A stretch of DNA of 64,000 nt from Escherichia coli (GTDB taxonomy: Bacteria; Pseudomonadota; Gammaproteobacteria; Enterobacterales; Enterobacteriaceae), in assembly GCF_030013595.1 (NCBI RefSeq), contig NZ_CP122768.1. One strand, given 5' to 3'. Made by a program: the position numbers and the translations under genes. The notes under the pieces are model-generated. The model was not told the origin of the DNA, did not search any database, and saw only the letters and a program-made list of their open reading frames with translations. Below are positions 2,303 to 19,890 of the stretch, in pieces (position 1 is the first letter of the stretch; each line of letters begins with the position of its first letter).

Positions 2303-2312
2303 CTTTATATCC

Positions 2313-3032: not shown

Positions 3033-3560
3033 AACTAATACTCCATTACTTCATGCCCATTTATGCCCGATGGTTCCCCCCTTCCGGGGGATCAATCATC
3101 AATAAATATGGCGTTCTTTTTTAATTGGCTAGCAACATACCACCCCTCATTTGTATGACAAATGATAATCTTTCATCCAAACTTCAAATGCAATAACTAA
3201 TTTTATTTCTTTCGGCATCGCTCACATTTTATAGGGAAATCGACGATCATTTTTGGCATAAGAAATCCATTTAAAAAGGCTACATCCCTTATACCTATTC
3301 AGTGCTACTTATTCAGGGGTTATTGAGATATACACTGATGGTGTACAAACAAAATCACCAACAATAATTACGTATCAAGTAATAATCGGCATTTTATTTA
3401 ATTGAAGCAATTTAGTTTGCATTTTTATTTAAAAACTGAGCTAGAGTCCATCAGAAAAAAAATATATAAAGCCCAAACCACCGTTGGAAATAGAAATAGT
3501 TGAAAGGCTCACAACTCCCGGAATGCGGATTATCTTTGCCCTGATTTCTGGCGGTTTTAT

Positions 3561-4415
3561 TCAGGGTGCAAGCTGTCTGACCCTTTCCCGATATTCTCCC
3601 GGAGTACAACCAAACTCGCGGACAAACGCCTTGTGAAAAGATGATTCACTGGCATAGCCTACTGACTCAGCGATCACCACAACAGGGAGCGTTTCCCGGG
3701 AAAACATCTGGGCCGCTATTTGTAGACGCAACTTTGTTAATACAGCTAGCGGCGTGGTTCCGGAAACATCACGGAAAAGCTGGGCAAAACTTGCCCGGGA
3801 CATGTGGGCGATGCTGGCCAGCGATTCGACGGTCCAGGCATGTCCTGGCATTTCCAGCATTTGCTGTATTACCGCACCAAGACGTGGATGCAGAAGCAAA
3901 CTGAGAATGTTTTTCTCTGTATTAACCTGTGCAATCCACTCACGCACCGCGAGGGTAAAGAATGTAGCGCAGATCTGGCTACACAGAGCATCCACTCCCG
4001 GCATTGCCGATCTGGATTCCTGTTGTAAAAACGGGATCGCCTCCCTCAGCCAGTTATATTCCACGCTATGGTTCACTGGTGCTACAAACAGCGTTTCCGG
4101 CAAAGACGTTAAAAAATAACGCGCCGAATGTTGCAGCCGAAGAGTGCCACAGACAATACAGGTCGATTCATTATCGACATGACTCAGGCGATGAGCTGAA
4201 TTTTGTGGTAGCAGGACCACATTTCCCGGGCGTAATGTAAAAATCTCTCCCGTCGGCATTTCCAGCTTCGCCGCTCCTTGCGTTAACGCATGCCAACGAA
4301 TAACCGACAATTCCCCGGCACCATGTGGAAGTTGCCAGTCACTTCCTAACACGCAATTCTTATCGATCGTTCCTTGTGGAGCGTTAAGCATCAACAAACG
4401 GCTAAGAGCATCCAT
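3561..4415 (-). CDS. rclR: AraC-family reactive-chlorine regulator RclR (284 aa)
   Basis: C-terminal AraC HTH; divergent from rclA; length matches RclR. Confidence 0.8.
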   Translation of the reverse strand: MDALSRLLMLNAPQGTIDKNCVLGSDWQLPHGAGELSVIRWHALTQGAAKLEMPTGEIFTLRPGNVVLLPQNSAHRLSHVDNESTCIVCGTLRLQHSARYFLTSLPETLFVAPVNHSVEYNWLREAIPFLQQESRSAMPGVDALCSQICATFFTLAVREWIAQVNTEKNILSLLLHPRLGAVIQQMLEMPGHAWTVESLASIAHMSRASFAQLFRDVSGTTPLAVLTKLRLQIAAQMFSRETLPVVVIAESVGYASESSFHKAFVREFGCTPGEYRERVRQLAP

Positions 4416-4641
4416 ATCAGACTCCTGAGTAGTTTTTTAATTACAAACACCAACAATCTTAGTCAATAATTAATCTAATACCATCAAATAGTTAATCATG
4501 ATTTTTGTTTTGTGATTCTGATTAAGAAAAAGAAAATACCAGACGATAAGACAAAATATCAAGCGTTGTGAAGAAATGTTATGTGCTCTTTTGCGTCTAT
4601 AGTCATGATGTCAAATGAACGCGTTTCGACAGGAAATCATC

Positions 4642-5862
4642 ATGAATAAATATCAGGCAGTGATTATTGGTTTTGGCAAGGCTGGAAAAACATTAGCCGT
4701 CACGCTGGCAAAAGCAGGTTGGCGTGTGGCTCTCATCGAACAATCAAATGCAATGTATGGCGGGACCTGTATTAATATCGGCTGTATCCCAACCAAAACA
4801 TTGGTTCATGACGCACAGCAGCACACAGATTTTGTCCGTGCCATACAGCGTAAAAATGAAGTGGTTAATTTTTTACGTAATAAGAATTTTCATAATCTTG
4901 CGGATATGCCCAATATCGACGTGATCGACGGCCAGGCGGAGTTTATCAATAATCATAGCCTGCGTGTTCATCGGCCTGAGGGAAATCTGGAGATTCATGG
5001 CGAGAAAATTTTTATTAATACCGGTGCACAAACCGTGGTTCCGCCAATTCCTGGAATTACCACCACGCCTGGTGTATATGACAGCACCGGATTACTTAAT
5101 CTAAAAGAATTGCCTGGGCATTTAGGTATTTTGGGCGGCGGATATATTGGCGTTGAGTTCGCCTCTATGTTCGCTAATTTTGGCAGCAAGGTAACCATTT
5201 TAGAAGCAGCTTCGCTGTTTTTGCCTCGGGAAGATCGGGATATTGCTGATAATATCGCGACGATTTTACGCGATCAGGGCGTCGATATTATCCTCAATGC
5301 CCATGTGGAGCGAATCAGTCACCATGAAAATCAAGTGCAAGTGCATAGCGAGCACGCCCAACTGGCGGTGGATGCACTGTTAATAGCTTCCGGTCGTCAA
5401 CCAGCTACCGCTTCGTTACATCCAGAAAATGCCGGTATCGCAGTAAACGAGCGCGGGGCAATTGTCGTTGACAAGCGATTACATACCACCGCAGACAATA
5501 TTTGGGCGATGGGAGATGTTACCGGCGGGCTGCAATTTACTTACATATCACTAGATGATTACCGCATTGTACGTGATGAGTTACTGGGTGAAGGCAAACG
5601 TAGTACTGATGATCGGAAAAATGTGCCTTATTCCGTATTTATGACACCGCCCCTGTCCAGGGTTGGTATGACAGAAGAACAAGCCAGAGAGAGTGGTGCT
5701 GATATTCAGGTGGTGACATTGCCTGTAGCTGCAATTCCGCGCGCCAGAGTGATGAACGATACCCGTGGGGTATTAAAAGCGATTGTTGATAATAAAACCC
5801 AACGTATATTAGGGGCATCACTGCTGTGTGTTGACACGAGAGTATTCAAAACACGCCAATAA
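4642..5862 (+). pseudogene. rclA: rclA (pyridine nucleotide-disulfide oxidoreductase), 5' portion; reading frame leaves native sequence after ...LLCVD (about 5835) and ends in element-derived codons TRVFKTRQ*
   Basis: GFGKAG Rossmann motif, CINIGCIPTK redox-active disulfide; K-12 RclA is 441 aa, here first 398 aa then insertion. Confidence 0.8.
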
Positions 5863-5903
5863 CCTCTTGATTCAATTGAAGTCGAAAATTTTAAGTCAAA
5901 AAT

Positions 5904-5929
5904 CGTATAGCTTAACGTGTAGCTAAAAA
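5904..5929. repeat. Sub-terminal repeat cgtatagctTaacgtgtagctaaaaa (left copy), probable integrase-binding/att-associated site
   Basis: Near-identical copy at 16432-16457 (1 mismatch). Confidence 0.55.
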
Positions 5930-6479
5930 TGTTTGCTGCAAAAGTATACAATTTTAACCGTTATGACTCCCTGTTATCCGTTATCAAGCTGGTGGATGAT
6001 CATGGATAACCCGTTATGGGAATCCCCATATCGGCATCAGGCCCATGCCATAACAAAAACCCCATATTCGTGGGTTTTCTGTGTTGTGGCTATTCTGCCG
6101 TTGCCGTGCTGGTGGATATTTCCGGTATGTGGCTCACCATATCGGCATCACGCCCACCAGCGCGACGCATTTTTTTAATTTCGCGGGTGTAAAAATTTGA
6201 CGGGGCGGGCGGTCCTATAAGCAATGGGGGGTAGGGATTTCGATCCCCCCTCCTGAATGCAATTTTCCGTATGTGGCTGTGCGGCAATCATACTCGTCAC
6301 ATGTTTTTGACAATAAAAGGCCCGACCGTGAGACTCACAAACAAAAAAGTTACGGAGAAACAGGGGATCGGGCTCGGTTGCCGCTAAATCTATTCAATTA
6401 AAAGAAGATGTCAATAGGGAAAACGAAAAAAAACAATGCTGATATTGTCATAATTTGAACAAAACCACTATATGTAGTT

Positions 6480-6710
6480 TTAGTTCATGAGGTTAGTCGC
6501 TACCAGATGCGTCAATAGTTTTTTGCTATTAATAATCCCTCTTTTTCCATCGGGAGCTTTGCACTTGTCACTACCTGGTAACTCCTGGTGGCGTTCCTGT
6601 TGCAGCACAACGGAAACAGGCGCTGAACACCTGTTAATTTTGCTTGCAGGTTGTTTGATTTCGGCAATGCTGCGGATCATCTCCAGCATATCGGCTTCGG
6701 TGATGGTCAT
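6480..6710 (-). CDS. Hypothetical small protein (76 aa) in satellite
   Basis: ORF only; lies just beyond the cos-like repeat block. Confidence 0.25.
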   Translation of the reverse strand: MTITEADMLEMIRSIAEIKQPASKINRCSAPVSVVLQQERHQELPGSDKCKAPDGKRGIINSKKLLTHLVATNLMN

Positions 6711-6718
6711 GATTTACA

Positions 6719-6995
6719 CCTTAGGAAATCTTAGGGGCTGGTTGACACTTTCCGGCTTAAGACCTTAACAAATCTTAACATCGCAGGTTGACACACTTGA
6801 CACTTTTTCGCGAAAAACCTTATCAAACCTTAGCATTTCTAAGCATGGCAACTTGACACTTTTCGCGATTTTTTCGGCTTTTTGACGTGGTAAATCTGGC
6901 GCAAAGCCAGTAACGGCGGGGTTTACAGCGAGGTTGACACTTTTTCGCGTTCAGAGTGTAAAGTGTCAACCTGGCAAGCTGCTCAACTTGACACT
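6719..6995. repeat. Cos/pac-like repeat block: at least 6 direct copies of TTGACAC(TTTT) (6742, 6788, 6797, 6853, 6934, 6988) plus one inverted copy (6963) interleaved with CTTAnnAAAnCTTA repeats
   Basis: Repeats counted directly; adjacent to TerS-like gene. Confidence 0.5.
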
Positions 6996-7003
6996 TTTTG
7001 AGG

Positions 7004-7531
7004 TCATTGATGGCCTGATTTTTCCCACTCAGCCAGGGCGTTTAGTCCGGCTTCACTCCAGTTATCCAGCTCATCGGGACAATCACCTGCAACATAGCAG
7101 AGCTCACAACGCAGCATACGAATTGCCAGCCTGGCATTTTCCCGAAAATCATACTGCTCAAAGTAATATTGCCCAGCATAATCCTCAAGGCAGATAGCAC
7201 CATCATCAAGAAATTGCACTTCACAGCATAGTTCCCCGGCTGCATCCTGTACACGCTGCTGTATGTCATTGTCCGTTACTGGTGCAGGGATTTTACCGTC
7301 TCTGGCCTTAACTGCTTTCCAGAACTCGCCCCACGTCATTTCCAGCGTTCTCTCTGGCCACATTTCAGAAACGGTATCTTTTCCCTGTGCTGGTGGGCTG
7401 TTCCGCTGCTCTGTCGCTTCCACATCGATTTTTTTACCGGACATGACCACTTCGCCTTTCTCGATCCAGTCGTAAACTGTCTGGCGGCTTACGCCTTTGT
7501 GTTTGGCATATTCTGCCTTGCTCATAAACAT
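7004..7531 (-). CDS. Terminase small subunit-like protein (Nu1-type N-terminal HTH); candidate packaging-redirection protein (Rpp-like)
   Basis: N-terminus KAEYAKHKGVSRQTVYDWIEKG resembles lambda Nu1 HTH; no large terminase or capsid gene in element. Confidence 0.55.
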   Translation of the reverse strand: MFMSKAEYAKHKGVSRQTVYDWIEKGEVVMSGKKIDVEATEQRNSPPAQGKDTVSEMWPERTLEMTWGEFWKAVKARDGKIPAPVTDNDIQQRVQDAAGELCCEVQFLDDGAICLEDYAGQYYFEQYDFRENARLAIRMLRCELCYVAGDCPDELDNWSEAGLNALAEWEKSGHQ

Positions 7532-7701
7532 GACACTTCCCCTCAGACTGTATTAATGCGCCGGAAAGCGCGTGTATTTAAATCATCCCAGGAACCGTTG
7601 AGCACCAATTAGTTGCGCGAAGTAATCGGCACCAGCGTTCCGAACAATTTCCAACTTAACGTTCTGATCATTGTTTCCTGCTGCAGGGACAATCCCACGA
7701 T

Positions 7702-8355
7702 TCATAGCCAGCGCCCGGATATTTCTTCCAGTTTTTCCAGAGCTGGCTTGCAGGCCGCATCAATAACTTCACGGACCATTCCGGCGAGCTGTTCTTCTTC
7801 TGTCGGCGTTGTTACTTCCACACCTGATGGTTTCCCGCCCTTATCCCATACGCCCAACGGTACGAGCGCAACGTGATCGATAAGAAATGGCGTACCCTCA
7901 ATGAAAAAATTGTCCTCGCCCATTACATCAGGAACTTCTGCCCCACCGGACGCACCACAAAACACAACCGACGGGCTGGTGGATACCTCCCCCCGTGCTT
8001 TCTGGATGTAATCGATGATTTCCTGCCCGTAAATCCGGCATACGCCCCACACCTCGTCACCGCGAATATACGGCAACATGACGGTGCCAATAATGCGCGA
8101 CCGTTCGCCCACGTCTTCAAGGGTTTTGCTTTCGGGATGGTCGATAATGACGGGTACTCCGGCGCAACGTTCCAGGAACTGCGGATTGAGATAAGTTTGC
8201 GGTGAACGCCAGACAAATTCTTTTTCTTCGGCGCGATAGGCCATTCCGGTTCCTGTGATACGCAGGTTAATCAGCCACATGTTGGAAAACTGATAAGGCG
8301 ACGGTAGCTGACCGTCCCGAATCTGCTTTGCCGCCTCAATTTCTGTTAAAAGCAT
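7702..8355 (-). CDS. Hypothetical protein (217 aa), satellite morphogenesis/packaging region
   Basis: ORF with coding-like composition; no motif recognised. Confidence 0.45.
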   Translation of the reverse strand: MLLTEIEAAKQIRDGQLPSPYQFSNMWLINLRITGTGMAYRAEEKEFVWRSPQTYLNPQFLERCAGVPVIIDHPESKTLEDVGERSRIIGTVMLPYIRGDEVWGVCRIYGQEIIDYIQKARGEVSTSPSVVFCGASGGAEVPDVMGEDNFFIEGTPFLIDHVALVPLGVWDKGGKPSGVEVTTPTEEEQLAGMVREVIDAACKPALEKLEEISGRWL

Positions 8356-8419
8356 AATGTCCCCCGGTTATAAGCAATAAGCCCCACCAAATCCGGCAGG
8401 GCTGAAATCAGCACGTTTT

Positions 8420-9013
8420 TCATGCCCCCGCGAGGCTTGCAACGTTAATTTTAACCAGGCGACGGGGAGGGATTTTGAAAGCACTAAGCCAGTTATTCGG
8501 ATCCCCCTGATATTCAGTAATCCGCCGTCCGGCTTCATCCATTCTTACGGTTTTACGCAAATAGCCCGGCGTATTTTCCACAGCCCACTGAACACTGTCT
8601 TTTGCAGCCTGGTAAATCTGATCTTCCAGCACCGCCAGCGTTGCAGAATCTGAAACGGAACGAATATCCACATCACTGAATTTTTTAGCCAGCTTCTGTG
8701 CACCAATTAATGCACGCTTGCGGTAATCCATCGACTTTTCACCAGCAAACGGGGCTGGAGCGCGACGGCCCATATTGCTGTATGCGGAATCCGCTTTAGC
8801 CTGGGCTTCTGCCAGTGAGGATTCATCTTCGACTGACGCGACGATGTTTTTATTCGCGTCATCCTCGTCCGCTTTTGTGAAATCCTGTGCGGGGATCGCA
8901 TTCAGAATTTCGATAATCTCCTGCGGAGTGCTGCCCTGCGACTCTGACAGAGCGTTAACCACCTCCATCAGTTTTAATCGCAAATCTTCTTTGCTTGCTG
9001 GCATTTTTACCAC
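8420..9013 (-). CDS. Hypothetical protein (197 aa), acidic and Ala/Glu-rich, scaffold-like
   Basis: ORF; composition resembles phage scaffolding proteins (inference only). Confidence 0.4.
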   Translation of the reverse strand: MVKMPASKEDLRLKLMEVVNALSESQGSTPQEIIEILNAIPAQDFTKADEDDANKNIVASVEDESSLAEAQAKADSAYSNMGRRAPAPFAGEKSMDYRKRALIGAQKLAKKFSDVDIRSVSDSATLAVLEDQIYQAAKDSVQWAVENTPGYLRKTVRMDEAGRRITEYQGDPNNWLSAFKIPPRRLVKINVASLAGA

Positions 9014-9043
9014 CTCTCTTTTTTCACCAAAAAATCACGACCA

Positions 9044-9241
9044 TCAGGCCGGACGTTCTACGGGATAAAGCGCCCGCTGCATTAAACGCCGGGCGACCTC
9101 ATGAATGCTCGGAGCAATCCCCAGCGGAGAATTGCGGCGTTCCTCGTCCTGGATGCGCTGTAATGCTTCAATCTGATCACGAGCGAGTAAAACGGGTTTC
9201 ACGCTGGCTTTTCTCATAGTCATATCTCCTGAACAAAACAA
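9044..9241 (-). CDS. Hypothetical small protein (59-65 aa)
   Basis: ORF between PerC-like gene and the 197-aa gene. Confidence 0.3.
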   Translation of the reverse strand: MFCSGDMTMRKASVKPVLLARDQIEALQRIQDEERRNSPLGIAPSIHEVARRLMQRALYPVERPA

Positions 9242-9418
9242 TGATTATGATTGCACAAACTGAAATAACGATCTACATCATTGCAATTTATGAAACAATA
9301 ACGCATGATGATCGCGTTCTTCCCATTGACTTCAATCACCTGAAAAACAAAGCCCGCAACACTTCTGGCTGCGGGTTTTTTACTGGCACAAAAAAGCCGG
9401 GAAAAATCCCGGCCTCCG

Positions 9419-9706
9419 TCACTGACTGCAATTTTTCGATCCAGGGTATTTCCTGAATGCCTTACCATTGGGCTGATGTAATCCCATCCCGGCATGTGCC
9501 CGGCTGATGGTTTCGCGCATTTCCCCGAAATTATCCTGCCTTGCTGGTGGGCGTGCTGCCTTGCGGATACATTCCGCGCGACGTTTTGCCGCCTGTTCCC
9601 GTGCCTTGTCATCATTCGCCAGCATGATGACCTCAGCCCACCGCGCCGCCGCTCTCCGGTACAGACCACGCGCTTCCAGTGCTTCCGCTTTGCTGTCGTG
9701 AATCAT
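9419..9706 (-). CDS. PerC-family-like transcriptional activator (95 aa)
   Basis: Small basic protein with N-terminus MIHDSKAEALEARGLYRRAAARWAEV typical of prophage PerC homologs (from memory). Confidence 0.45.
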   Translation of the reverse strand: MIHDSKAEALEARGLYRRAAARWAEVIMLANDDKAREQAAKRRAECIRKAARPPARQDNFGEMRETISRAHAGMGLHQPNGKAFRKYPGSKNCSQ

Positions 9707-10245
9707 GCGCCTGTTTTCTCCTTTGCTGCCCGGCGCTGACGTTTGCGCTTCTCATTCAGCGCCACCAGCCGCGTTTCTGCGTCCTGTTGTTCCTGTGGTG
9801 TCACCTCGCCGCACGGCTGGCCTTTCAGGTCGTAGCGTACCCCACCAGCCATTAAGGCGCGGTAATAGCGCGGACACTGCGCATAAGATGCCAGCGTCGC
9901 ACGCAATGCCCCTGGACCGAATGCCAGCCCCCTGACGGCGAGATCCTGCATCAGGTCGTCGAATATCCCCACCTTAAGCGGCTTCGGTGCTTCCCGGCTG
10001 AATAATTCAGGCCACAACTCAGTGAGGCGGTTAACGCGCCTGCGGTTTTTGCGCTGGCGTTTGGTCATATGCCGCCACGGTGTCGCCCCTGTGGGCTTCT
10101 GCTGCGCTTTCTGGTTACCGGGCATCACTTTATGCGCCGATGTGGTTTTATCCTGCTCCTGCGCCGCCTGCGTCGTTTTCTGCGGCGTGCCGTAAATGCC
10201 TTTCGGTTTTCTGTTAATGGTCAGCTTAGTCATGCTTTGCCCCAT
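9703..10245 (-). CDS. ProQ/FinO-domain RNA-binding protein (180 aa)
   Basis: PKPLKVGIFDDL ... YAQCPRYYRAL ... RYDLKGQPCGEVT matches ProQ/FinO N-terminal domain pattern; K/R-rich tail. Confidence 0.6.
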   Translation of the reverse strand: MGQSMTKLTINRKPKGIYGTPQKTTQAAQEQDKTTSAHKVMPGNQKAQQKPTGATPWRHMTKRQRKNRRRVNRLTELWPELFSREAPKPLKVGIFDDLMQDLAVRGLAFGPGALRATLASYAQCPRYYRALMAGGVRYDLKGQPCGEVTPQEQQDAETRLVALNEKRKRQRRAAKEKTGA

Positions 10246-10392
10246 CGTTTTTACTGGTTGCTACGTTGCCCAACGGCACTGACACAACATTCTGTTTTCA
10301 TTTTTAACATTCCTGATTTTTTAATTCCTCACCTGCTGCACAGTGAAAATTTATGAAGTTAATAACAATATGATTTTAAATGTATTTTTAAG

Positions 10393-10713
10393 TACTCACT
10401 TTTTAATCCTTATATATACGCAAAAGTGAGGTAAATAGTTAAGTTTTAGTTAATATCTTGCATGGTGTGTTTTTTAACCTACCTGTTATTTTTATTACCT
10501 CATTTCTATTAACTCACCATTCCTCACTTTTGTTCCTCACTTTTTATTATTCTTGTTCTGCTCCTCAGTCGTTTTCTTTATTGTTGTAATCTGTTGTTTT
10601 GCAATGTGTTTTTAACTCCTCACTTTTTGACCTATATACAGGTGAGAAAGTGAGGAGTGGCGTTGATTTTTTGTTAAATTACCCGCCATCCTCACTTTTG
10701 CTCCTCACTTTTT
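10393..10713. repeat. Iteron-type replication origin: at least 7 copies of CCTCACTTTT (direct and inverted) in AT-rich DNA immediately 3' of rep
   Basis: Copies at about 10395, 10421 (inv), 10522, 10534, 10617, 10645 (inv), 10691, 10703. Confidence 0.6.
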
Positions 10714-12127
10714 ACAGTGGGCGCACATAATCACCGTCAATAGCGATTACGCCGTCGCTTTCCAGCTTGTACAGCCAGCGCCGGAAGTTTTTCATTTCAT
10801 ACCCCAGCTTTTTCATATCATCGCGGAGAAGGGCGATAGTGCACGCCTCCCCGTGTGCTGTTCGCGTTCTGATGCACTGCCATAGCGCAGCGTGATTTTC
10901 CGTCTTGTTCCCGGCCTCCTCGATGCGTTCCAGTTCAACAGGTGGGCGCGGCTTATCCACAACCACCAGCGACGTGATTAACTCCCCGTCAGTGTCGGTA
11001 AAAAGCTCCACCACGCGTAAATCATATGCAGCCTCTTTCAGTTCCTCCGCGTCCTTCATTTTGGTGCAGGAGATAACCAGGGCTTCACTGTCCGCACCTT
11101 CACGGCGAATACGGTATTCAGCGTCCAGAGATGCACGAAATGCACTGGAACCACGCGCCCCTTTTGTTTCATCCTTGCCGGAATGGTGAACCACCAGTAC
11201 CGTGGCCCCTGTGCGTCGTTTCAGTTCGTCACATCCACGGATAAACGCCCCCATATCCCGCGCGTCATTTTCATCATTACCGCCAAAGCAACGCGCCAGC
11301 GTATCCAGAATAATCATGCGTACCGGTTTACCCGTTTCCCGTTCAACCTGACGGGAAGCGATGACCATTTCATCAACATCAAGCGGGACCGCCGGAAAAA
11401 TCGGGCGGTTTACCAGGTACAGATTTTTCACCCGTTCATCATTAACGATTTCCCATGCTTTGATACGACGAGGAACACCGATCCCGCCCTCACCAACGAC
11501 ATACATAACCGCACCATGTACAACCCTGCGACCTCCCCAGTGGCGACCAGTGGCAACATGACACGCCCAGGAACACGCGAGGAACGATTTATAGGAACCG
11601 CTCGCGCCGTATGTGCTGCACAACGAATTAGCCGGAATCACGCCCTTAACGACATAATCAAGCTGTGTGTCGTATCCTGCAGATCCAATACTCATTGGTA
11701 GCGTGGTTTTTCGCTGGCTGTATTGCTCGTCAGTAAGTATTTCCCCGCGCTCTGCCTGTTCGCGGATCCGTTGCAGGTAGTCGTGCCAGTTCTCCAGCTT
11801 CTGGCTGTGCATTCCCTCAGGGTAATAATTCGCATCCCGTACACCTGCCGCCGCCAGTTTTTGCCCGATGGCATTAATATTTGACGGCTTGATGTGGCCT
11901 GCCTTGTACAGCCGGACACAATAGCGACCATCGTCGATAATTTTCAGGTCTGCCAGTTCGTCAAGCTGGCTGTCTCCCAGCCATACAGGCGGAACATTGT
12001 CGCCAGCAAGTCGCCCGTCCTGTTCCTGCCATTGTTTCGCGTGCGCCCAGGCATCACTACCCGCAAAAATAATGACTTCGGTCATTTTGTCGTGTGGCTG
12101 TTTTTTTAAGTTCGGTGCCAGTTTCAT
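10712..12127 (-). CDS. RepA-like replicative helicase / AAA_25-type ATPase (471 aa)
   Basis: Walker A GASGSYKS, Walker B MIILDTL, VVHHSGK; adjacent iterons. Confidence 0.7.
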   Translation of the reverse strand: MKLAPNLKKQPHDKMTEVIIFAGSDAWAHAKQWQEQDGRLAGDNVPPVWLGDSQLDELADLKIIDDGRYCVRLYKAGHIKPSNINAIGQKLAAAGVRDANYYPEGMHSQKLENWHDYLQRIREQAERGEILTDEQYSQRKTTLPMSIGSAGYDTQLDYVVKGVIPANSLCSTYGASGSYKSFLACSWACHVATGRHWGGRRVVHGAVMYVVGEGGIGVPRRIKAWEIVNDERVKNLYLVNRPIFPAVPLDVDEMVIASRQVERETGKPVRMIILDTLARCFGGNDENDARDMGAFIRGCDELKRRTGATVLVVHHSGKDETKGARGSSAFRASLDAEYRIRREGADSEALVISCTKMKDAEELKEAAYDLRVVELFTDTDGELITSLVVVDKPRPPVELERIEEAGNKTENHAALWQCIRTRTAHGEACTIALLRDDMKKLGYEMKNFRRWLYKLESDGVIAIDGDYVRPL

Positions 12128-12423
12128 TTTGTGCCCCTGAATGCGTTAATCATGTTTTTCATTTTCTGAATATTTGCCCGTGCCTTTGCGTTGCTGGTGG
12201 GCTGTTTGCGTGGTGTGGCCTGTATCAGTGAAAAATCACGCCGGAACTGATAAACAGGCATCACGCAGTCGTAGCTGTACCCATCACGGCGGTAAGTAAC
12301 GCACCGTCCGGCAATACTTTTAATCGTTACCGTGCCGCCGTAGTTATCCCGGAAAATATCGCCGGGGCGGATTTCAGGCCGAGGGAGACCACTGGCAGTA
12401 AAGCCAGAATTTTTCTTTTTCAT
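12124..12423 (-). CDS. Hypothetical protein (99 aa), translationally coupled to rep (4-bp overlap)
   Basis: ORF; operon packing. Confidence 0.45.
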   Translation of the reverse strand: MKKKNSGFTASGLPRPEIRPGDIFRDNYGGTVTIKSIAGRCVTYRRDGYSYDCVMPVYQFRRDFSLIQATPRKQPTSNAKARANIQKMKNMINAFRGTK

Positions 12424-12427
12424 GGTT

Positions 12428-12628
12428 TTATTTTCCTGTCAGCAGTTCCGGTTTTATTTCCGCACGAATACAGAGTTCAGAAAAAAATTCAGGAGAACCA
12501 ACAATCTCATTACTTTTCAGTCGGCATTGTGATTTCACTTTCCCTTTATCCAGGTAAACCAGTATGCGTCCGGTGAAATCATCTGGCACACTCAGGGTAA
12601 TTGTCATTGTTGCTTGCTGATTATCCAT
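12428..12628 (-). CDS. Hypothetical protein (66 aa) with one FTG-x-LV repeat unit
   Basis: Shares about 50-aa repeat with upstream 121-aa protein. Confidence 0.4.
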   Translation of the reverse strand: MDNQQATMTITLSVPDDFTGRILVYLDKGKVKSQCRLKSNEIVGSPEFFSELCIRAEIKPELLTGK

Positions 12629-12986
12629 GATTCACCCCCTGAATAACCTGATAACCGCAACTGGTCAGCAATTCGATAAATTCCGGCAGTGTTCCGAAAC
12701 AGCAATCATCTCGCAGCCGTTCTCGGGATACTTCAACGCCGTTTTCGTAGTGACTCACCATGCGTCCGGTAAAATGCAGATCATCATCGTGATGGCTCGT
12801 TAACGGCTTAATCAGTCGCGCACGTTCTGCCAGCTCCAGCAATGCTTCAACGCTTCCGGCAATTGCACCATCCGGCAGGTGATAATTACTTGCCACGCGT
12901 CCATTCTCCACGTTAACCAGTAGCTGCCCGGTGAATTTCTCATCAAACTGAATGCTGTTAAGGTCAGAAATTGACAGGTTAATCAT
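12621..12986 (-). CDS. Hypothetical protein (121 aa) with two internal FTG-x-LV repeat units
   Basis: Internal duplication visible in translation; 8-bp overlaps with neighbours. Confidence 0.45.
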   Translation of the reverse strand: MINLSISDLNSIQFDEKFTGQLLVNVENGRVASNYHLPDGAIAGSVEALLELAERARLIKPLTSHHDDDLHFTGRMVSHYENGVEVSRERLRDDCCFGTLPEFIELLTSCGYQVIQGVNHG

Positions 12987-13344
12987 GGCGTACCTCCTGG
13001 CGAATACGGGCAGCGAATACCATCACGCAGCCATCAGGAGATTGCTGGCGTGCTTCCTGTTCGCTGGTGGCCACGATGTGAATCACGCGCGGTTGTGCGG
13101 TGCTCAGGGCGATAAAACGCCAGATAAAATTGTTTTCGCATTTCTGAATAAACAGCGTGTTTTCTTCGCGCCCTTTCCATGTTGCCGAGATATAGCCCAT
13201 GCCATTGAGCATCTCGCAGGCATCAACCAGCGTATCAGCGGCTACGTGTACAGTGTTTTTACCGTCAGCTATGCAATCACGGTGCACCGCCAGGAAGGTG
13301 TATATAAATTTAGGGTGAGTTTGGGTATGCTGTGTTCCAGCCAT
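12979..13344 (-). CDS. Hypothetical protein (121 aa); first gene of alpA-distal operon
   Basis: ATG at 13344 with AGGT RBS; the 478-aa ORF-track extension to 14415 is judged spurious. Confidence 0.45.
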   Translation of the reverse strand: MAGTQHTQTHPKFIYTFLAVHRDCIADGKNTVHVAADTLVDACEMLNGMGYISATWKGREENTLFIQKCENNFIWRFIALSTAQPRVIHIVATSEQEARQQSPDGCVMVFAARIRQEVRHD

Positions 13345-13545
13345 AATCGTTACCTCATTTAACGGTTTGGTTAGAAGCCCCGTTACTGCTCCAACAGTGC
13401 GGGGCTTCGTCGTTTCAATTGCTGAATTGCATGTATCAGCCCTTGTGGTATTCAGATTACATTTTGGTGAATACCATTTCAAGTCTTTTTTGGTATTCAC
13501 TTTTGTATTACACTGCATCCCGTTATTAATCGGAGGTGCAAACAT

Positions 13546-13849
13546 GTCCACGAGTTCTGTTAACAATAAGTCACAGCAACTGAATGCCAGATTTCCACAT
13601 GAAGTAGTGAGTGGCATTGAGGCATCCCTACAGCCAGGGGAAACTAAAGCGAATTTTATAGTTACGGCTGTACGCGGTGAGATCGCCCGCCGCCAGGCAG
13701 AAGGAAGCGGAGAAAACCCCCTGGTTTCTTCGCTCGATGCGCTGGCGCAGGTGGAAAAAATCGGAGTCAAAGCTGCCGAGGAGATCGGGCAGCTCGTCAC
13801 CGTCGCACGTGAAGAACTCCAGCGCCGCAAGGCCAAAGAATCAGAATAA
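13546..13849 (+). CDS. Putative ribbon-helix-helix-like DNA-binding protein (101 aa), divergent from the rep operon
   Basis: GGAGG RBS; inverted repeats TGGTATTCA / TGAATACCA at about 13445-13500 upstream. Confidence 0.4.
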
Positions 13850-13906
13850 TAACTATCATCGCCGTGGTGTGAGGAACTCCGGCGCATTGCTTTACAGGTA
13901 CACAGA

Positions 13907-14107
13907 ATGACCAACAAAGAATCAACCAAAACACCATCACCAACCCGGAAGAGACGTCGCAAAAATATGACGCACGAGCATGAATCAGACAGATTCGCGC
14001 CGTGTGCGTTTGTCCTTGAGACGTTCCTTAAAGAGTACAGGCGCACAAAATTAGGGCCACATACCTGGAAAACATCGCGACATAGCGATATTAAAGAGCA
14101 GGAATAG
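13907..14107 (+). CDS. Hypothetical small basic protein (66 aa)
   Basis: ORF downstream of RHH-like gene; R/K-rich N-terminus. Confidence 0.3.
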   Translation: MTNKESTKTPSPTRKRRRKNMTHEHESDRFAPCAFVLETFLKEYRRTKLGPHTWKTSRHSDIKEQE

Positions 14108-14240
14108 CCCACCAGCAAGTCAGCATATTCACCATAATGACCCTCGGTTAAACCTAGAGTCATTGGTGCAAACCTGACACATTGCCCACCAGCCAGCAAA
14201 TCGCTATGATATTTGGGCTTATGTTTAGTGTTTTCCCATT

Positions 14241-14268
14241 GGCGACCGCCCCCGGTCGCCTTTGTTTT
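14241..14268 (+). terminator. Rho-independent terminator (GGCGACCG-cccc-CGGTCGCC + T-run)
   Basis: Perfect 8-bp stem followed by TTTGTTTTG. Confidence 0.55.
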
Positions 14269-14321
14269 GCCCGTTATCCGGCAATTGTGGCGCTTCGCCA
14301 CACGGTTGATATAATTCCCCT

Positions 14322-14392
14322 GCACTGATCCATTTTTTTCGCAGCAGGTTAATTGTTCGCAAGGGCGCTCCGGCAACGGGGCGCTTTTTGTT
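14322..14392 (+). ncRNA. Candidate ~70-nt small RNA: extended -10 (TGaTATAAT, 14307-14315) to terminator hairpin 14361-14389 with GNRA-like loop and T-run
   Basis: Promoter-like element and terminator ~70 nt apart in a 310-bp non-coding gap, convergent with alpA 3' end. Confidence 0.3.
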
Positions 14393-14419
14393 ATGTTCAT
14401 CGCGTTACGCCTCACACCA

Positions 14420-14626
14420 TTACGCAGCCGTTCCGCGCGCTTCTTCCTCGCGCTCTTTCAGCCAGGCCAGCACTTCATCTTCATACCAGCCAACACGACG
14501 CAGACCGATTTTGAAGCCTTTCGGGAATTTTCCGGCGTTGATCATGTCCTGTAGCGAACTGTCTGCCTTGATGCGCAGAATATTTTTTACTTCCTGACGG
14601 GTAAGTATTTTTCTGATTGTTTCCAC
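14420..14626 (-). CDS. alpA: AlpA-family transcriptional regulator (68 aa)
   Basis: Typical AlpA/Vis-like size and HTH (LRIKADSSLQDMINAGKFPKGFKIG) next to integrase. Confidence 0.75.
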   Translation of the reverse strand: METIRKILTRQEVKNILRIKADSSLQDMINAGKFPKGFKIGLRRVGWYEDEVLAWLKEREEEARGTAA

Positions 14627-14690
14627 TATGTTTTACCTCGTTAATCCGGCGTATTCCGGTGATAAATACGGTAAAACAGGGCAGGGCGGG

Positions 14691-14732
14691 AAAAACAGTA
14701 CCCACCGTTTTAAAACGGTACCCACTGTTTTT
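14691..14732. promoter_or_regulatory. Tandem operator-like sites AAAAC(A/G)GTACCCAC(C/T)GTTTT x2 upstream of alpA
   Basis: Two 20-bp near-identical units in the alpA promoter region. Confidence 0.4.
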
Positions 14733-14795
14733 ATCTCATTGATTACGCTTTTCTTTCTGCAAAAAAATAGCGACCGCAAAGGGCCGCTATTGTGA

Positions 14796-15026
14796 TTACC
14801 GTTTCCACTTCTTAGGTCGCCCACCGCATTTAAGGCTGGTGGGCCTCAGCACCTTGTCGATGCTTTCAGCCAGATTTTTCGATGCACCACGCGAGCGCAA
14901 AAAACTGACTACCTCGTGTTTTGTGGGGGCTGTTGATTTGTCTTCCGGATCGTATGTTGACCAGAATTCACGATTTGCCATTAACGCCAGTTGCAGCCCT
15001 TCGCCGTAGGCGGTGGTATTTTGCAT
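14796..15026 (-). CDS. Hypothetical small protein (76 aa) between int and alpA
   Basis: ORF only. Confidence 0.25.
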   Translation of the reverse strand: MQNTTAYGEGLQLALMANREFWSTYDPEDKSTAPTKHEVVSFLRSRGASKNLAESIDKVLRPTSLKCGGRPKKWKR

Positions 15027-15124
15027 AATAGAATTTTCATATACTCCGGCCTTGTCGTTAAATTTGTGGCAATTATACGATGGTTTGGCATGGTTTGCAT
15101 CGCTTTTACTGGCTTTTTGTACAG

Positions 15125-16366
15125 CTACACGGCACGGATACCCCTTTTACCGCTGGCTATGGTCACTCCGGTAGCTGCAGCCTCCACAAATTCACCCCAC
15201 CAGCGCATAAGCACCACGCGCTTTTCCAGGTAGTTACTTCGGTTATATGCCCGCCTTACCTCGTTCGTGTCCACGTGTGCGAGTGCGGCCTCGATTACGT
15301 CCGGTTCGAATCCTTCCTCGTTCGCTGCTGTGCTGAATATGGCGCGTAATCCGTGAGACACCAGCACACCAGCGTAACCCATCCGGCGTAATGCAGCGTT
15401 AGCGGTCTGGCTGCTCATTGGCAGCATCGGATTTTTAAGGCTGGGAAAAACGTGTTCCCTGTGTGCGCTGATTGGCTTCATGGTTTCCAGTACAGCCATA
15501 GCCTGACCGCAAAGGGGGATCACATGGTCACGGCGCATCTTCATGCGTCCGGCTGGAATCGTCCAGGTTTCGGCATCGAGATCTATTTCTTCCCAGCGTG
15601 CGGCGGCTGCTTCGGCTGGGCGTGCTACGGTCAGCAGTTGCCACTCAATCAGCAATCTGGTTTGCCGTTCTATGCTGGCGACCGATAAATCGTGCATTAG
15701 CTGCGGTAGCTGTTCCGGTCGGATGGTTGGCATGTGCTTTTTGGTGGGTGAGGGGAATGCCTTGCGGACGTTCGCGGCGGTGTTGATGTCAATCAGCCCA
15801 CTGTTGGCGGCAAAATCCATCACTTCATTGATGCGCTGCAAAACGCGTTTCAGAGTTTCCAGGTTGCCGCGTGCTTTAATGGGGGTGAGTATCTCAACAA
15901 AGCGGCGAGCGGTGAGGGTATCTATTGGCGTGTTTCCGATGTACGGGAATACGTATTTTTCCAGGGATCGCCAGATATCCTTAATCGTGTTGTAAGCCAG
16001 ATTCTGGCCTTTTTTCATCTCGTACCAGTCCGAGGCAACTTTTTCGAACGTGTTGCCCTTTTTCCGGCTCTCTGCTTCACGTTTCCGGCGTTCATGGTCC
16101 TGTGGGTCAGTTCCCTTTGCTATTAGTGACCTGTATTCATTCCGTCGCTCTCTGGCATCAGACAGGGAAACATCATTCAGCGATCCAAGGCTGATAATAG
16201 TCCGTTTTTTATCTGCCGGGCGGTAGTACGTAAAACGCCATATTTTTGATCCGGAGGGCTTCACCAGAAGAAATAATCCTCCGCCATCCTGCAGGGTGTA
16301 TTCCTTTTCCCCTGGTCGTGCGTTTTTGATCTCCGTAATGGTTAGTGGGGTGGTTTTTCGTGCCAT
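15125..16366 (-). CDS. Tyrosine site-specific integrase (P4-type, 413 aa)
   Basis: N-terminal arm-binding-like region and C-terminal catalytic domain (HGLRAIFST ... R..Y); adjacent repeat cluster. Confidence 0.85.
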   Translation of the reverse strand: MARKTTPLTITEIKNARPGEKEYTLQDGGGLFLLVKPSGSKIWRFTYYRPADKKRTIISLGSLNDVSLSDARERRNEYRSLIAKGTDPQDHERRKREAESRKKGNTFEKVASDWYEMKKGQNLAYNTIKDIWRSLEKYVFPYIGNTPIDTLTARRFVEILTPIKARGNLETLKRVLQRINEVMDFAANSGLIDINTAANVRKAFPSPTKKHMPTIRPEQLPQLMHDLSVASIERQTRLLIEWQLLTVARPAEAAAARWEEIDLDAETWTIPAGRMKMRRDHVIPLCGQAMAVLETMKPISAHREHVFPSLKNPMLPMSSQTANAALRRMGYAGVLVSHGLRAIFSTAANEEGFEPDVIEAALAHVDTNEVRRAYNRSNYLEKRVVLMRWWGEFVEAAATGVTIASGKRGIRAV

Positions 16367-16380
16367 GTTTTTTTACCCAT

Positions 16381-16457
16381 CGGTAGCTATATGCCTGGTC
16401 GTAGCTATACGGCTTTAGCTACACGCTGGACCGTATAGCTAAACGTGTAGCTAAAAA
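16381..16457. repeat. Integrase-proximal repeat cluster (GTAGCTATAC / CGTATAGCTA / CGTGTAGCTA inverted and direct units) including right copy of sub-terminal repeat (16432-16457)
   Basis: Matches left copy at 5904-5929. Confidence 0.55.
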
Positions 16458-16509
16458 ATCCGGTTATAACCCTATCTTACCGATTCAATCCGGCGACTGA
16501 AAACAACAA

Positions 16510-16543
16510 AAAAGCCCGTTAATCAGTAAATTAACGGGCTTTC
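16510..16543 (-). terminator. Hairpin AGCCCGTTAAT-loop-ATTAACGGGCT with T-run on minus strand
   Basis: 11-bp stem; on the minus strand followed by TTTTTTGTTGTTTT. Confidence 0.4.
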
Positions 16544-16555
16544 AATAGGTTACCG

Positions 16556-16710
16556 ATGCTGTCCGATATTCAATTTGGTCGGCACGAGATGATCAATATA
16601 GTGAAAATGGTGATGGATGCCGGGCTGCCTTATAGCATATTACGCGATCAGATATTTACTCATCCGTCGATGAGCGAATCACTCAATGATCTATTTTCAT
16701 TAGTCAAATA
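16556..16710 (+). pseudogene. rclA: rclA 3' remnant encoding ...HEMINIVKMVMDAGLPYSILRDQIFTHPSMSESLNDLFSLVK*
   Basis: Matches remembered RclA C-terminal dimerisation region; in-frame ATG at 16556 is element-derived. Confidence 0.7.
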
Positions 16711-16819
16711 AACTCAAAATCAGACGCCAGAACAAATATTCTGGCGTCTCAGAGAAAAGAATCTTATTAATTCCCTGTTACTTTATAACTTCTTAATCAC
16801 TTCATTGATGGTATTTTAT

Positions 16820-17056
16820 ATGTTTAAAAAACCTGTTTTATTTGCAACACTATTATCTGGCGTTATGGCATTTTCCACCAATGCAGATGATAAAATAATT
16901 CTGAAACATATCAGCGTCTCGTCAGTATCAGCATCACCGACAGTTCTTGAGGATGCCATTGCTGATATGGCCAGAAAATATAATGCTTCATCCTGGAAAG
17001 TTACATCGATGCGAATTGATAATAATTCAACCGCAACAGCAGTATTGTATAAATAA
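16820..17056 (+). CDS. rclB: Small periplasmic DUF1471 protein RclB (78 aa)
   Basis: Signal peptide then YdgH/BhsA-like domain; position between rclA and rclC. Confidence 0.8.
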   Translation: MFKKPVLFATLLSGVMAFSTNADDKIILKHISVSSVSASPTVLEDAIADMARKYNASSWKVTSMRIDNNSTATAVLYK

Positions 17057-17058
17057 GG

Positions 17059-17661
17059 ATGTTCACAATGGAAAAATACCTGCACCTGTTAAGTCAGGGA
17101 GATAAAATTGGCCTGACATTGATTCGTCTGAGTATTGCGATTGTTTTTATGTGGATTGGGTTATTAAAGTTTGTCCCTTACGAGGCAGACAGCATTACAC
17201 CATTCGTCGCAAACAGTCCACTAATGTCGTTCTTTTATGAACACCCGGAAGACTATAAACAGTATCTGACTCACGAAGGCGAATACAAACCAGAAGCAAG
17301 GGCATGGCAAACGGCCAATAATACCTATGGTTTTTCCAACGGTCTTGGCGTCGTGGAGGTGATTATTGCTCTGCTGGTTTTGGCTAATCCTGTCAATCGC
17401 TGGTTAGGTTTATTGGGAGGGCTGATGGCATTTACCACACCGTTGGTAACACTCTCATTTTTAATCACCACCCCGGAGGCATGGGTACCCGCATTGGGTG
17501 ACGCTCATCATGGTTTCCCTTATTTATCCGGTGCTGGTCGCCTGGTATTGAAAGATACTCTGATGCTGGCAGGTGCTGTCATGATAATGGCAGATTCGGC
17601 GCGGGACATTCTTAAACAACGCAGTAATGAATCCAGTTCAACGTTAAAAACTGAATATTGA
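17059..17661 (+). CDS. rclC: DoxX-like inner membrane protein RclC (about 197-200 aa)
   Basis: Multiple hydrophobic helices; operon position. Confidence 0.8.
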   Translation: MFTMEKYLHLLSQGDKIGLTLIRLSIAIVFMWIGLLKFVPYEADSITPFVANSPLMSFFYEHPEDYKQYLTHEGEYKPEARAWQTANNTYGFSNGLGVVEVIIALLVLANPVNRWLGLLGGLMAFTTPLVTLSFLITTPEAWVPALGDAHHGFPYLSGAGRLVLKDTLMLAGAVMIMADSARDILKQRSNESSSTLKTEY

Positions 17662-17820
17662 TAATCCGAACACTGTCTGTTGTTCACTTTTTCAGGCGTC
17701 AGGCCCCCTTTCTGATGATGAAGCCTGACGCCATATTACCGGAGATATGACAGAGTGAAGATCAATATCACTCCCCTGTTAAAAGATTCTTGTCGTCTCA
17801 GGTAAAATACATGATTAATA

Positions 17821-18705
17821 TCAATCATGTATTTTTACAGCAAGACAACCACGAACAAACTCAGGATTAAAATGTTTTACCGATTCCCCAACATAACCCA
17901 AATCAAGCGAACTAATTTGCGCCATTTCTTTCTCTGTCAGTGAGAAATCCCAAATAGCAAAATTTTCTTCGATACGCTGTTGATGTGTCGATTTCGGAAT
18001 AACGACCACTCCCCGTTGAATATTCCAACGCAGAATGACTTGAGAAATCGATTTTTGATGGGCATCTGCAATACTCTGAAGCAGATTATTTTCAAAGGGT
18101 TTATGTCGTCCACCACCTAACGGAGCCCATGCTTCAGGCTGCACGATATAATACTTCATGGTTGCCAGCGCCTCTGGTTGGGCAAAATAGGGATGCAACT
18201 CGACCTGGTTGACCATCGGTTTAACTCTTACCGTTTCACAAAAGTTCGCCAGAACATGAGGATAGAAATTGGAAACCCCAATCGCTTTTAATTTGCCCTC
18301 TTCATAGGCATCTTCGAGTGCACGCCACGCACTGAAATAATCGCGCATAGCCTGGTGCAATAAATAGAGGTCGAAGTATTCTAGTCCCGATTTTTTTAAT
18401 GACGCTTCAATACCTGCTTTTGCCGTATCCTGATTCAACATATCCTGCACCCACAATTTAGACGTTATAAATAACTCTTCTCGGGTACATAAACCTTCAG
18501 ATATGGCTTCACGAACGGCTTCACCGACGGCATCTTCATTACCGTATACCGCTGCAGTGTCGATGAGTCGATAACCCGTGCGGATAGCATTCAGCACTGA
18601 CTGTTTGCACACGTCTTTATCGGTAACCTGAAAAACACCAAATCCCATCATCGGCATTTTCAGATTGTTACTTAATACGGAAAATTCCACTGTCAGTCCC
18701 TCCAT
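17821..18705 (-). CDS. Aldo-keto reductase (294 aa)
   Basis: AKR signatures ([27 protein letters not shown]). Confidence 0.8.
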   Translation of the reverse strand: MEGLTVEFSVLSNNLKMPMMGFGVFQVTDKDVCKQSVLNAIRTGYRLIDTAAVYGNEDAVGEAVREAISEGLCTREELFITSKLWVQDMLNQDTAKAGIEASLKKSGLEYFDLYLLHQAMRDYFSAWRALEDAYEEGKLKAIGVSNFYPHVLANFCETVRVKPMVNQVELHPYFAQPEALATMKYYIVQPEAWAPLGGGRHKPFENNLLQSIADAHQKSISQVILRWNIQRGVVVIPKSTHQQRIEENFAIWDFSLTEKEMAQISSLDLGYVGESVKHFNPEFVRGCLAVKIHD

Positions 18706-18904
18706 TAGGCATGAACAATGAGTCTACGTTAAAACGTAACCTCAAATTAGTATGTGGATTTTGATATCACTTATGCAAAAAATTCATTAATAATGTAGGA
18801 CTGAAACCTCTCTATTTTTGGGGCAATGAAGCAGACGCTATCAGTGCTTTTGCCTTGGGCCTTGCTGTTTTTGATACACTTAGGGCCCAGGGCATAACGA
18901 AAAT

Positions 18905-19795
18905 GTGCGATATGACAAAGAATTAATGGAGAATGTGATGATCAGGCAGAAGATTCTACAGCAGCTCCTGGAGTGGATTGAGTGCAATCTCGAGCACCCT
19001 ATTTCAATCGAAGATATCGCACAGAAATCTGGCTACAGCAGACGCAACATCCAGCTTCTTTTCCGAAATTTCATGCATGTGCCTTTGGGAGAATACATTC
19101 GCAAACGAAGGCTTTGTCGTGCCGCCATTCTTGTCCGGCTCACCGCGAAATCTATGCTTGATATTGCACTCTCTTTGCATTTTGATTCACAGCAGTCATT
19201 CAGCCGCGAATTTAAAAAGTTATTCGGCTGCTCTCCCCGTGAATACCGCCACCGTGATTATTGGGATCTCGCAAATATCTTCCCTTCTTTTTTAATACGT
19301 CAACAGCAAAAGACGGAGTGTAAATTAGTCAACTTTCCTGAGACACCTATTTTTGGCGATTCATTTAAATATGACATTGAAGTGTCGAATAAATCACCGG
19401 ATGAAGAAGTCAAACTGCGACGTCATCATTTAGCCAGATGTATGAAGAGTTTTAAGACGGATATCTATTTCGTCTCCACATTCGAACCGTCAACAAAATC
19501 GGTCGATTTGCTCACAGTTGAAACTTTTGCCGGTACGGTATGTAAACAAACCGATTCAGAGATGCCGAAAGAGTGGATAATTAACCGAGGACTGTATGCC
19601 TCTTTCCGCTATGAAGGTGAGTGGGAGCACTACTCTGAATGGGTGCGAAACCTCTATCTGATGGAATTACCTGCCAGGGGGTTAGCCAGAGTGAACGGCA
19701 GTGATATTGAGCGGTTTTATTACAATGAAAACTTCGTCGAAATCGATAGCAATAACATTGTTTGCGAAATTTTTATCCCCGTTCGTCCGGTTTAG
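18905..19795 (+). CDS. ykgA: AraC-family regulator with GyrI-like effector domain (296 aa), YkgA-like
   Basis: N-terminal AraC HTH (IEDIAQKSGYSRRNIQLLF); position next to eaeH. Confidence 0.65.
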   Translation: MRYDKELMENVMIRQKILQQLLEWIECNLEHPISIEDIAQKSGYSRRNIQLLFRNFMHVPLGEYIRKRRLCRAAILVRLTAKSMLDIALSLHFDSQQSFSREFKKLFGCSPREYRHRDYWDLANIFPSFLIRQQQKTECKLVNFPETPIFGDSFKYDIEVSNKSPDEEVKLRRHHLARCMKSFKTDIYFVSTFEPSTKSVDLLTVETFAGTVCKQTDSEMPKEWIINRGLYASFRYEGEWEHYSEWVRNLYLMELPARGLARVNGSDIERFYYNENFVEIDSNNIVCEIFIPVRPV

Positions 19796-19845
19796 CTGTA
19801 GCGATGTTTACATGAATTTATAACGAGACTACTGTCAGGCAATTC

Positions 19846-19890
19846 AATAAATAATGGCGTTGAAGATGTCAACGCCATTATTGTTTATTA
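19846..19890. terminator. Bidirectional terminator hairpin (TAATGGCGTTGA / TCAACGCCATTA) between convergent ykgA and eaeH
   Basis: 12-bp perfect stem with T-run. Confidence 0.6.

Follow-up and report, generated by a model that had tools for sequence, protein, structure and literature searches.

A candidate PICI-type phage satellite at a probable secondary attachment site in rclA splits the rclABC operon of an Escherichia coli strain

Secondary-site lysogeny by phages lambda and P2, in which insertion takes place at sites of partial core homology when the bacterial attachment site attB is absent or occupied, is known from the classical work of Shimada, Weisberg and Gottesman, and the disruption of a gene by a secondary-site insertion, with polar effects on its operon, is textbook knowledge. 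Phage satellites have their own described relationships to chromosomal sites. The phage-inducible chromosomal islands (PICIs) of Gram-negative bacteria, such as EcCICFT073, occupy dedicated chromosomal sites (Fillol-Salom et al. 2018, PMC6092414), while helper-embedded PICIs and other elements with gene-targeting integrases reside inside protein-coding genes that are their regular targets, and with which they are co-oriented for cis-regulation (PMC10111431). Here we describe a stretch of 64,000 nucleotides of E. coli DNA (contig NZ_CP122768.1 of assembly GCF_030013595.1, hereafter the window), in which an element resembling such satellites lies within rclA, a gene of the rclABC/rclR defence locus against reactive chlorine and hypothiocyanite (PMC9335216, PMC12096828, PMC7527725). 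RclA reduces hypothiocyanite at a rate close to the diffusion limit, and tolerance to hypothiocyanous acid (HOSCN) and hypochlorous acid (HOCl) requires both RclB and RclC (PMC9335216, PMC12096828). The rclABC operon is driven by RclR at the rclA promoter, the only promoter that the literature assigns to it (PMC12096828).

We consider it likely that a satellite used its own tyrosine integrase to insert at a secondary site in rclA, killing RclA and uncoupling rclBC from their promoter. The normal target of this satellite would be the 3' end of the tRNA-Pro gene proL, and the crossover would have occurred within CACGAGA, a heptamer common to rclA and the element's attachment site. The insertion would cut RclA after residue 398, thus removing His426, Glu431 and part of the dimer interface, and would separate rclBC from the RclR-activated promoter by a premature stop codon followed by 10.7 kb of mostly antisense foreign DNA, so that HOCl or HOSCN would no longer induce them. 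With four rclA bases lost at the left junction, attL, integrase-mediated excision would leave a frameshifted rclA behind. This reading is carried by the anatomy of the insertion, by an integrase and an attachment arm that match those of copies resident at proL, by how seldom the rclA site is used, and by the catalytic residues that RclA has lost.

The host sequences on either side of the element (window 1900-5835 and 16583-20300) share 99.92% identity with an intact reference locus (L001, NZ_CM149870; rclR, rclA, rclB and rclC as annotated in RefSeq), in which they are contiguous save for 3 unaligned bases. With these flanks and the expected Pfam domains, the locus is recognizable as the described rclR-rclABC system, with rclR, rclB and rclC unchanged; unlike in the standard locus, rclA is cut short and the operon lies in two pieces, the two copies of the CACGAGA core lying 10,748 bp apart (Table 1). 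An initial annotation of the window had already described a split rclA next to intact rclR, rclB and rclC, and our alignment bears out this description together with all of its coordinates. Neither rclB nor rclC contains an internal stop codon.

Over its 398 native codons, out of 441 in the full-length gene, the truncated rclA shows no mismatch to the reference. The protein retains the redox-active cysteine pair, C43xxxxC48, as well as the FAD- and NAD-binding regions covered by Pyr_redox_2 (residues 4-301) and Pyr_redox (160-234), as the initial annotation had proposed. The same annotation counted nine element-derived codons ending in the stop at 5862; the stop is where it was placed, and it is preceded by eight foreign codons. 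Its further claim that the C-terminal dimerisation domain is lost holds for the final 43 residues, but not for the domain as a whole, as 70 of the 110 positions of the Pyr_redox_dim profile are still encoded. The missing residues include the HPSMSE motif at 426-431, which contains His426 and Glu431. Catalysis in this family depends chiefly on two cysteines and on a histidine and a glutamate in the C-terminal part, residues that superimpose in Har, RclA, MerA, glutathione reductase and thioredoxin reductase (PMC11107202); structures of RclA are on record as 6KGY, 6KYY and 6KOD. In the window, the native part of the open reading frame (ORF) stops at residue 398, and H426 and E431 are encoded on an orphan fragment 10.7 kb away. 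Because two of the four catalytic residues are gone, along with part of the dimer interface, the truncated RclA is predicted to be inactive, and, based on what is known of the family, we regard it as a dead HOSCN/Cu(II) reductase. As a separate observation, the 3' region of rclA matches about 150 plasmid records (NZ_CP024144.1, for example), which indicates that rclA is also plasmid-borne in some E. coli.

The consequences for rclB and rclC are a matter of transcription. Both genes had been placed about 11 kb from the RclR-dependent promoter, and they do lie 10.75 kb farther from it than normal. A transcript starting at the rclA promoter would meet the premature stop codon and then 10.7 kb of antisense satellite DNA, with terminator-like sites at 6061-6074 and 7001-7016, and our scan found no sigma-70-like promoter at threshold on the plus strand between the integrase gene and rclB (16367-16820). 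For these reasons, rclBC are likely no longer induced by HOCl or HOSCN. Deletion of either rclB or rclC causes sensitivity to both oxidants (PMC12096828; PMC7527725), and we infer that the strain would be sensitive as well.

It is conceivable, if rather improbable, that a separate promoter, in the 3' end of rclA or in the rclA-rclB spacer, still gives constitutive or inducible expression of rclB and rclC, so that only RclA is lost. In K-12, in fact, rclB and rclC RNA is about tenfold less abundant than rclA RNA, and the authors concluded that regulation is more complex than that of a simple operon (PMC12096828); a strong hairpin (16722-16749) divides rclA from rclB, which is consistent with partial uncoupling, and neither rclB nor rclC shows decay. 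However, the absence of decay is uninformative when the flanks are still 99.9% identical to intact loci, a degree of identity that also argues for a recent insertion, the plus strand of 16367-16820 yielded no candidate promoter at the scan threshold, and the sole RclR-dependent promoter described lies upstream of rclA. The hairpin itself might contribute to the drop in rclBC RNA reported in K-12.

The initial annotation had raised the alternative that rclBC are controlled by read-through from the satellite. Although one plus-strand ORF (13367-13849) does point toward the right junction, attR, and the 16510-16543 hairpin lacks a T tract in the plus direction, we see little prospect that transcription out of the satellite drives rclBC. 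The sizeable satellite genes between 7004 and 16366 are nearly all antisense to rcl, including every satellite gene up to 2.7 kb from attR (alpA, an ORF of 76 codons, and int); to reach rclBC, plus-strand transcription would need to run around 3 kb in antisense over alpA and int and get beyond several terminator-like sites, and no outward promoter was predicted from the satellite.

Two features near attR were suggested to bear on rclBC and can be set aside. The minus-strand terminator hairpin at 16510-16543, behind which rclB and rclC had been said to lie, does exist, but its U tract is found on the minus strand only, with no T tract in the rcl sense direction, and the same hairpin is present in a proL-resident copy of the element (L003, 14311-14344) directly after the 3' end of the tRNA-Pro gene. 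A block to rclBC is therefore ruled out, as the hairpin is directed to the minus strand and the proL copies share it, and to judge from the latter it is most likely the element's replacement for the proL terminator. Similarly, the ATG at 16556, proposed as a translational restart, is in frame with the rclA remnant and opens an ORF of 51 codons ending at 16711. This ATG is, however, part of the element arm in the proL copy of strain STEC313, which lies away from rclA, and its position is therefore fortuitous; with the ATG in the proL arm too, and no promoter predicted upstream, a designed restart is ruled out.

To place the insertion among its relatives, we surveyed 5,426 complete E. coli genomes using as query the integrase-proximal arm of the element (window 16380-16589). 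The arm was found at 93 places in 89 genomes (about 1.6%), and among the matches listed its best place overlaps a tRNA-Pro gene in 59 of 60; identity to the proL copies ranges from 95.7 to 99.5%. In STEC313, ETEC6335 and Z1323CEC0003 the element lies between yejO and the proL tRNA gene adjoining yejM. The STEC313 copy was read at the sequence level and has on either side a 17-nt direct repeat, TTTGGTCGGCACGAGAG, that corresponds to the 3' end of the tRNA, and at proL TGGTCGGCACGAGAG falls within the annotated tRNA-Pro gene. Fusion of the arm to rclA was seen in four genomes (ETEC6335, U90, Z1323CEC0010 and MFDS1022581), and TW08637 carries a more divergent relative at the same rclA position, so that the rclA site is used in about 5 of the 5,426 genomes, whereas 5,092 of the 5,124 genomes with the target region have it in one piece. 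The intact site reads GTTGACTCC-CACGAGA-TGATC (uninterrupted wild-type sequence, GTTGACTCCCACGAGATG), and the heptamer is all it has in common with the element's attachment site: when about 13-19 nt on each side were compared by eye with the proL attB and the element's attP, about four to five matches per side were counted, which is near chance. The same integrase and attP thus have a far more frequent primary attB at proL, identity between attP and rclA is limited to the 7-nt core, and the element bears the tRNA-Pro 3' end of its primary target. By these comparisons, rclA qualifies as a secondary attachment site of a proL-specific satellite. In the literature searched, neither rclA nor ykgC turned up as a site of integration, and this use of rclA appears to be unreported so far.

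It is hardly credible that rclA is instead the primary target of a retargeted integrase variant. At least five genomes, in addition to the window, have elements at exactly the same rclA position, and these elements differ in their cargo modules. The integrase in the window, however, differs from a proL-resident one at only 2 of 413 residues, which largely rules out retargeting, the arm is nearly that of the proL copies, and the element carries the 3' end of tRNA-Pro, not that of rclA. As in lambda and P2 secondary lysogeny, then, a tyrosine integrase with a strong primary attB would occasionally use a site that shares only a short core, with inactivation of the gene that is entered, predicted downstream polarity, and rarity relative to the primary site. 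Unlike in lambda and P2, the element is a satellite and not a phage, insertions in several unrelated strains all use one secondary site, and 4 of 6 junctions have deletions of 1-4 nt beside the core. The satellite shares with the elements of PMC10111431 a location inside a protein-coding gene; in contrast to those, it is anti-oriented, and rclA would be an accidental target.

Exactly four genomes carry two copies of the arm, and three of these are rclA-insertion strains. The second copy is at proL in ETEC6335 and Z1323CEC0010, and the third such strain with two arm copies is U90. Most annotated proteins of the proL and rclA copies in ETEC6335 share accessions, which makes the two sister copies. 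Because only about 1.6% of genomes carry the arm, the co-occurrence of an rclA insertion with a second copy is far above chance, and it fits the classical picture in which a secondary site serves once the primary one is filled. Insertion into rclA does not require an occupied proL, as MFDS1022581 has the rclA copy only. Two further observations were made on these genomes. Compared with the proL copy (L008), the rclA copy of ETEC6335 (L002) has an extra insert, containing a primase pseudogene and a small ORF, at L002 positions 9077-10389, and Z1323CEC0003 (NZ_CP148493.1) has a second arm copy that is neither at rclA nor in tandem at proL, and which may mark another secondary site.

The attL junctions of the rclA insertions vary. 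In U90 attL reads GTTGACTCC-CACGAGA-GTATTC, whereas in the window it reads GTTGA-CACGAGA-GTATTC, a loss of 4 bases; 3 bases are missing in both ETEC6335 and Z1323CEC0010, 1 in TW08637, and none in U90 and MFDS1022581. Every loss falls within the rclA-derived CTCCC immediately 5' of the core. On the other side, attR is as expected in the 2 genomes whose sequence was read, and the attR query matches at 96.7-99.6% in all 4 rclA-fusion genomes. Although ETEC6335 and Z1323CEC0010 share the same 3-nt loss, their left junctions match that of the window at 99% and 91%, respectively. The junction in the window, being without CTCC, is thus not the conservative one that secondary-site integration would be expected to leave. 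As a speculation, the integrase might cleave abortively at a poor core-type site, with repair following. Scans of metagenomes for the attL pattern (0-5 nt between GTTGA and ACGAGAGTA) and for the attR junction gave no matches, and the pattern of junction deletions therefore rests on six cases. Tentatively, one could go further and propose that the rclA heptamer is a preferred back-up site when proL is occupied, and that the integrase, error-prone at this site, nibbles 1-4 nt from the host side of attL and so generates a site-specific knockout, unable to revert, of an operon that protects against the innate-immunity oxidants HOSCN and HOCl; we hold this to be possible, but doubtful.

The junction loss also determines what excision could achieve. 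When excision through the core was simulated in the window, the predicted scar, GTTGACACGAGATGATC, was frameshifted and the protein ended in ...LLCVDTR followed by a stop. A derivative cured of the element would therefore still lack RclA because attL is short of 4 nt, and this weakens the comparison of the strain with such a derivative, which the initial annotation had recommended. For the same reason, there is next to no chance that the insertion is a reversible switch ("active lysogeny") whose induced excision restores rclA. Both int and alpA are intact, and precise excision at the clean junctions of U90 and MFDS1022581 would rebuild the gene; in the window, however, the reading frame is not restored and a stop codon follows two codons past the junction, attL is also short in ETEC6335, Z1323CEC0010 and TW08637, and the rclA site is rare and not the normal target of the element. 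An assembly artefact, which the initial annotation had named as one circumstance that would overturn its interpretation, is ruled out by the same rclA/element junctions in four other, independent complete genomes and by the divergent relative at the same position in a fifth.

We acknowledge that several points weigh against integrase-mediated insertion at a secondary site with loss of RclA and rclBC induction. The rclA site is so unlike proL beyond the heptamer that its repeated use lacks an explanation, and the 4 nt lost at the junction are not predicted by simple integrase recombination. No tRNA gene was found in the window and proL lies outside it; that a sister satellite occupies proL in the genome from which the window derives is a prediction. 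As for expression, its loss in this strain is predicted from sequence, and, given the low abundance of rclBC RNA and the complex regulation reported (PMC12096828), rclBC could still be expressed to some extent from an internal promoter that has not been mapped.

The element itself is laid out like the Gram-negative PICI-type satellites, with a putative helper dependence. Like EcCICFT073 and the other PICIs of PMC6092414, it has an integrase, alpA and a replication module in the conserved order, followed by iterons, together with a helper-type cos site and a dedicated chromosomal site. Its proteins gave no match to tail, lysis, portal, large terminase or major capsid genes in Pfam and PHROG searches; relatives, however, do carry capsid, decoration and connector genes, and the DUF2213 protein in the window weakly resembles a head protease. 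The element departs from these PICIs in size (10,748 bp against the typical 12-15 kb; its proL relatives measure roughly 10-13 kb), in having a RepA-type helicase and not pri-rep, and in a cos region like that of phiP27 and not of lambda or phi80. The match to phiP27, an Stx2e phage whose cos region lies between its HNH endonuclease and small terminase genes, includes the annotated 10-nt cos site of that phage, and was the sole match when a phage collection was scanned with the element; this points to phiP27-like HNH/cos phages as candidate helpers.

Nearly all features of the element are on the minus strand, the plus-strand exception being the ORF at 13367-13849, whose counterpart in ETEC6335 is annotated as YlcI/YnfO family; an Icd-like gene is also carried. 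Directly downstream of the terS-like gene, the TTGACACTTTT(TCGCG) iterons are clustered in both orientations and could be binding sites for the terminase or a regulator. The TCCTCACTTTTT iterons, among which inverted repeats are also found, occupy the same position as the replication origin in PICIs, and by analogy with the PICI gene layout (PMC6092414) they likely represent the origin. Two adjacent ORFs within 7702-9013 match separate parts of phrog_6216 (545 positions), the upstream ORF positions 405-544 and the downstream one 115-315, which suggests a rearranged or split gene.

Table 1. Features of the rcl locus and of the inserted element, with positions in the window.
Feature	Position	Strand	Remarks
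rclR, AraC-type activator, intact	3561-4415	minus	284 residues; 0 nt differences to the reference; Pfam HTH_18, Cupin_6
rclR-rclA intergenic region with the RclR-dependent rclA promoter, unaltered	4416-4641		Within the 99.92% identical left flank; promoter according to PMC12096828
Truncated rclA	4642-5862	plus	398 native codons, 8 foreign codons (TRVFKTRQ), stop at 5860-5862
PICI-like, cos-type phage satellite	5835-16589	minus	Boundaries match proL copies in other genomes (5835-16593)
attL core copy CACGAGA	5835-5841	plus	Preceding rclA bases CTCC missing, compared with the clean junction of U90
Left arm repeat CGTATAGCTTAACGTGTAGCTAAAAA, likely integrase arm-binding site	5904-5929	plus	Direct repeat family D10; 96% identical to 16432-16457
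cos-like region	6172-6253	plus	Includes 44 nt identical to the phage phiP27 cos region
TTGACACTTTT iterons	6742-7003	plus	Repeat families D2, D4, D8, I8, I11; adjoin the terS-like gene
HTH protein, weak match to small terminase subunit	7004-7531	minus	phrog_57, 5e-7; Pfam HTH_17 below cutoff
DUF2213 protein, weakly like head maturation protease	7702-8355	minus	PF09979; phrog_6216, phrog_530
PerC-family gene	9419-9706	minus	PF06069, 2e-32
ProQ/FinO-family gene	9703-10245	minus	PF04352, 8e-24
TCCTCACTTTTT iterons	10387-10714		Repeat families D1, D11, I1, I2, I4; downstream of the helicase gene
RepA-family replicative helicase	10712-12127	minus	AAA_25, 2e-44; RefSeq name in L002
AlpA-family regulator/excisionase	14420-14626	minus	PF05930, 4.5e-8, above cutoff; phrog_66
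Tyrosine integrase, P4/CP4-57 type	15125-16366	minus	Arm-DNA-bind_3, Phage_int_M, Phage_integrase; 411/413 identical to the STEC313 proL copy
Right arm-repeat copy	16432-16457	plus	Direct repeat family D10
Element terminator hairpin	16510-16543	minus	15 pairs; -22.5 kcal/mol on the minus strand; z = -4.95
Element copy of the tRNA-Pro 3' end, TGGTCGG + CACGAGA	16576-16589	minus	Last 7 nt are the attR core
Orphan rclA 3' remnant	16590-16711	plus	With the attR core (16583-16589) encodes codons 400-441 and stop, including HPSMSE
Native rclA-rclB hairpin	16722-16749	plus	-18.6 kcal/mol in the sense direction; z = -6.0; no plus-strand T tract
rclB, intact	16820-17056	plus	78 residues; 1 nt difference to the reference; PF07338; DUF1471 family
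rclC, intact	17068-17661	plus	197 residues; 1 nt difference to the reference; DUF417, 2e-80

Our findings leave current views of the rcl system and of satellites unchanged. What they describe is an ordinary disruption of a gene by a mobile element, in which the only real oddities are the repeated use of one heptamer and the attL losses of 1-4 nt. They do document the use of a secondary site by a satellite, where at least one genome retains a sister copy at the primary site and the junctions vary unexpectedly. The strain is predicted to be a natural rclA-null, probably also without rclBC induction, and could as such provide a useful natural control in studies of a locus whose loss is relevant to fitness in the inflamed gut. 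If the rclA heptamer did act as a back-up site of the kind tentatively proposed above, rcl-null lineages would be expected to arise repeatedly and predictably in livestock E. coli through superinfection by, or re-integration of, the satellite.

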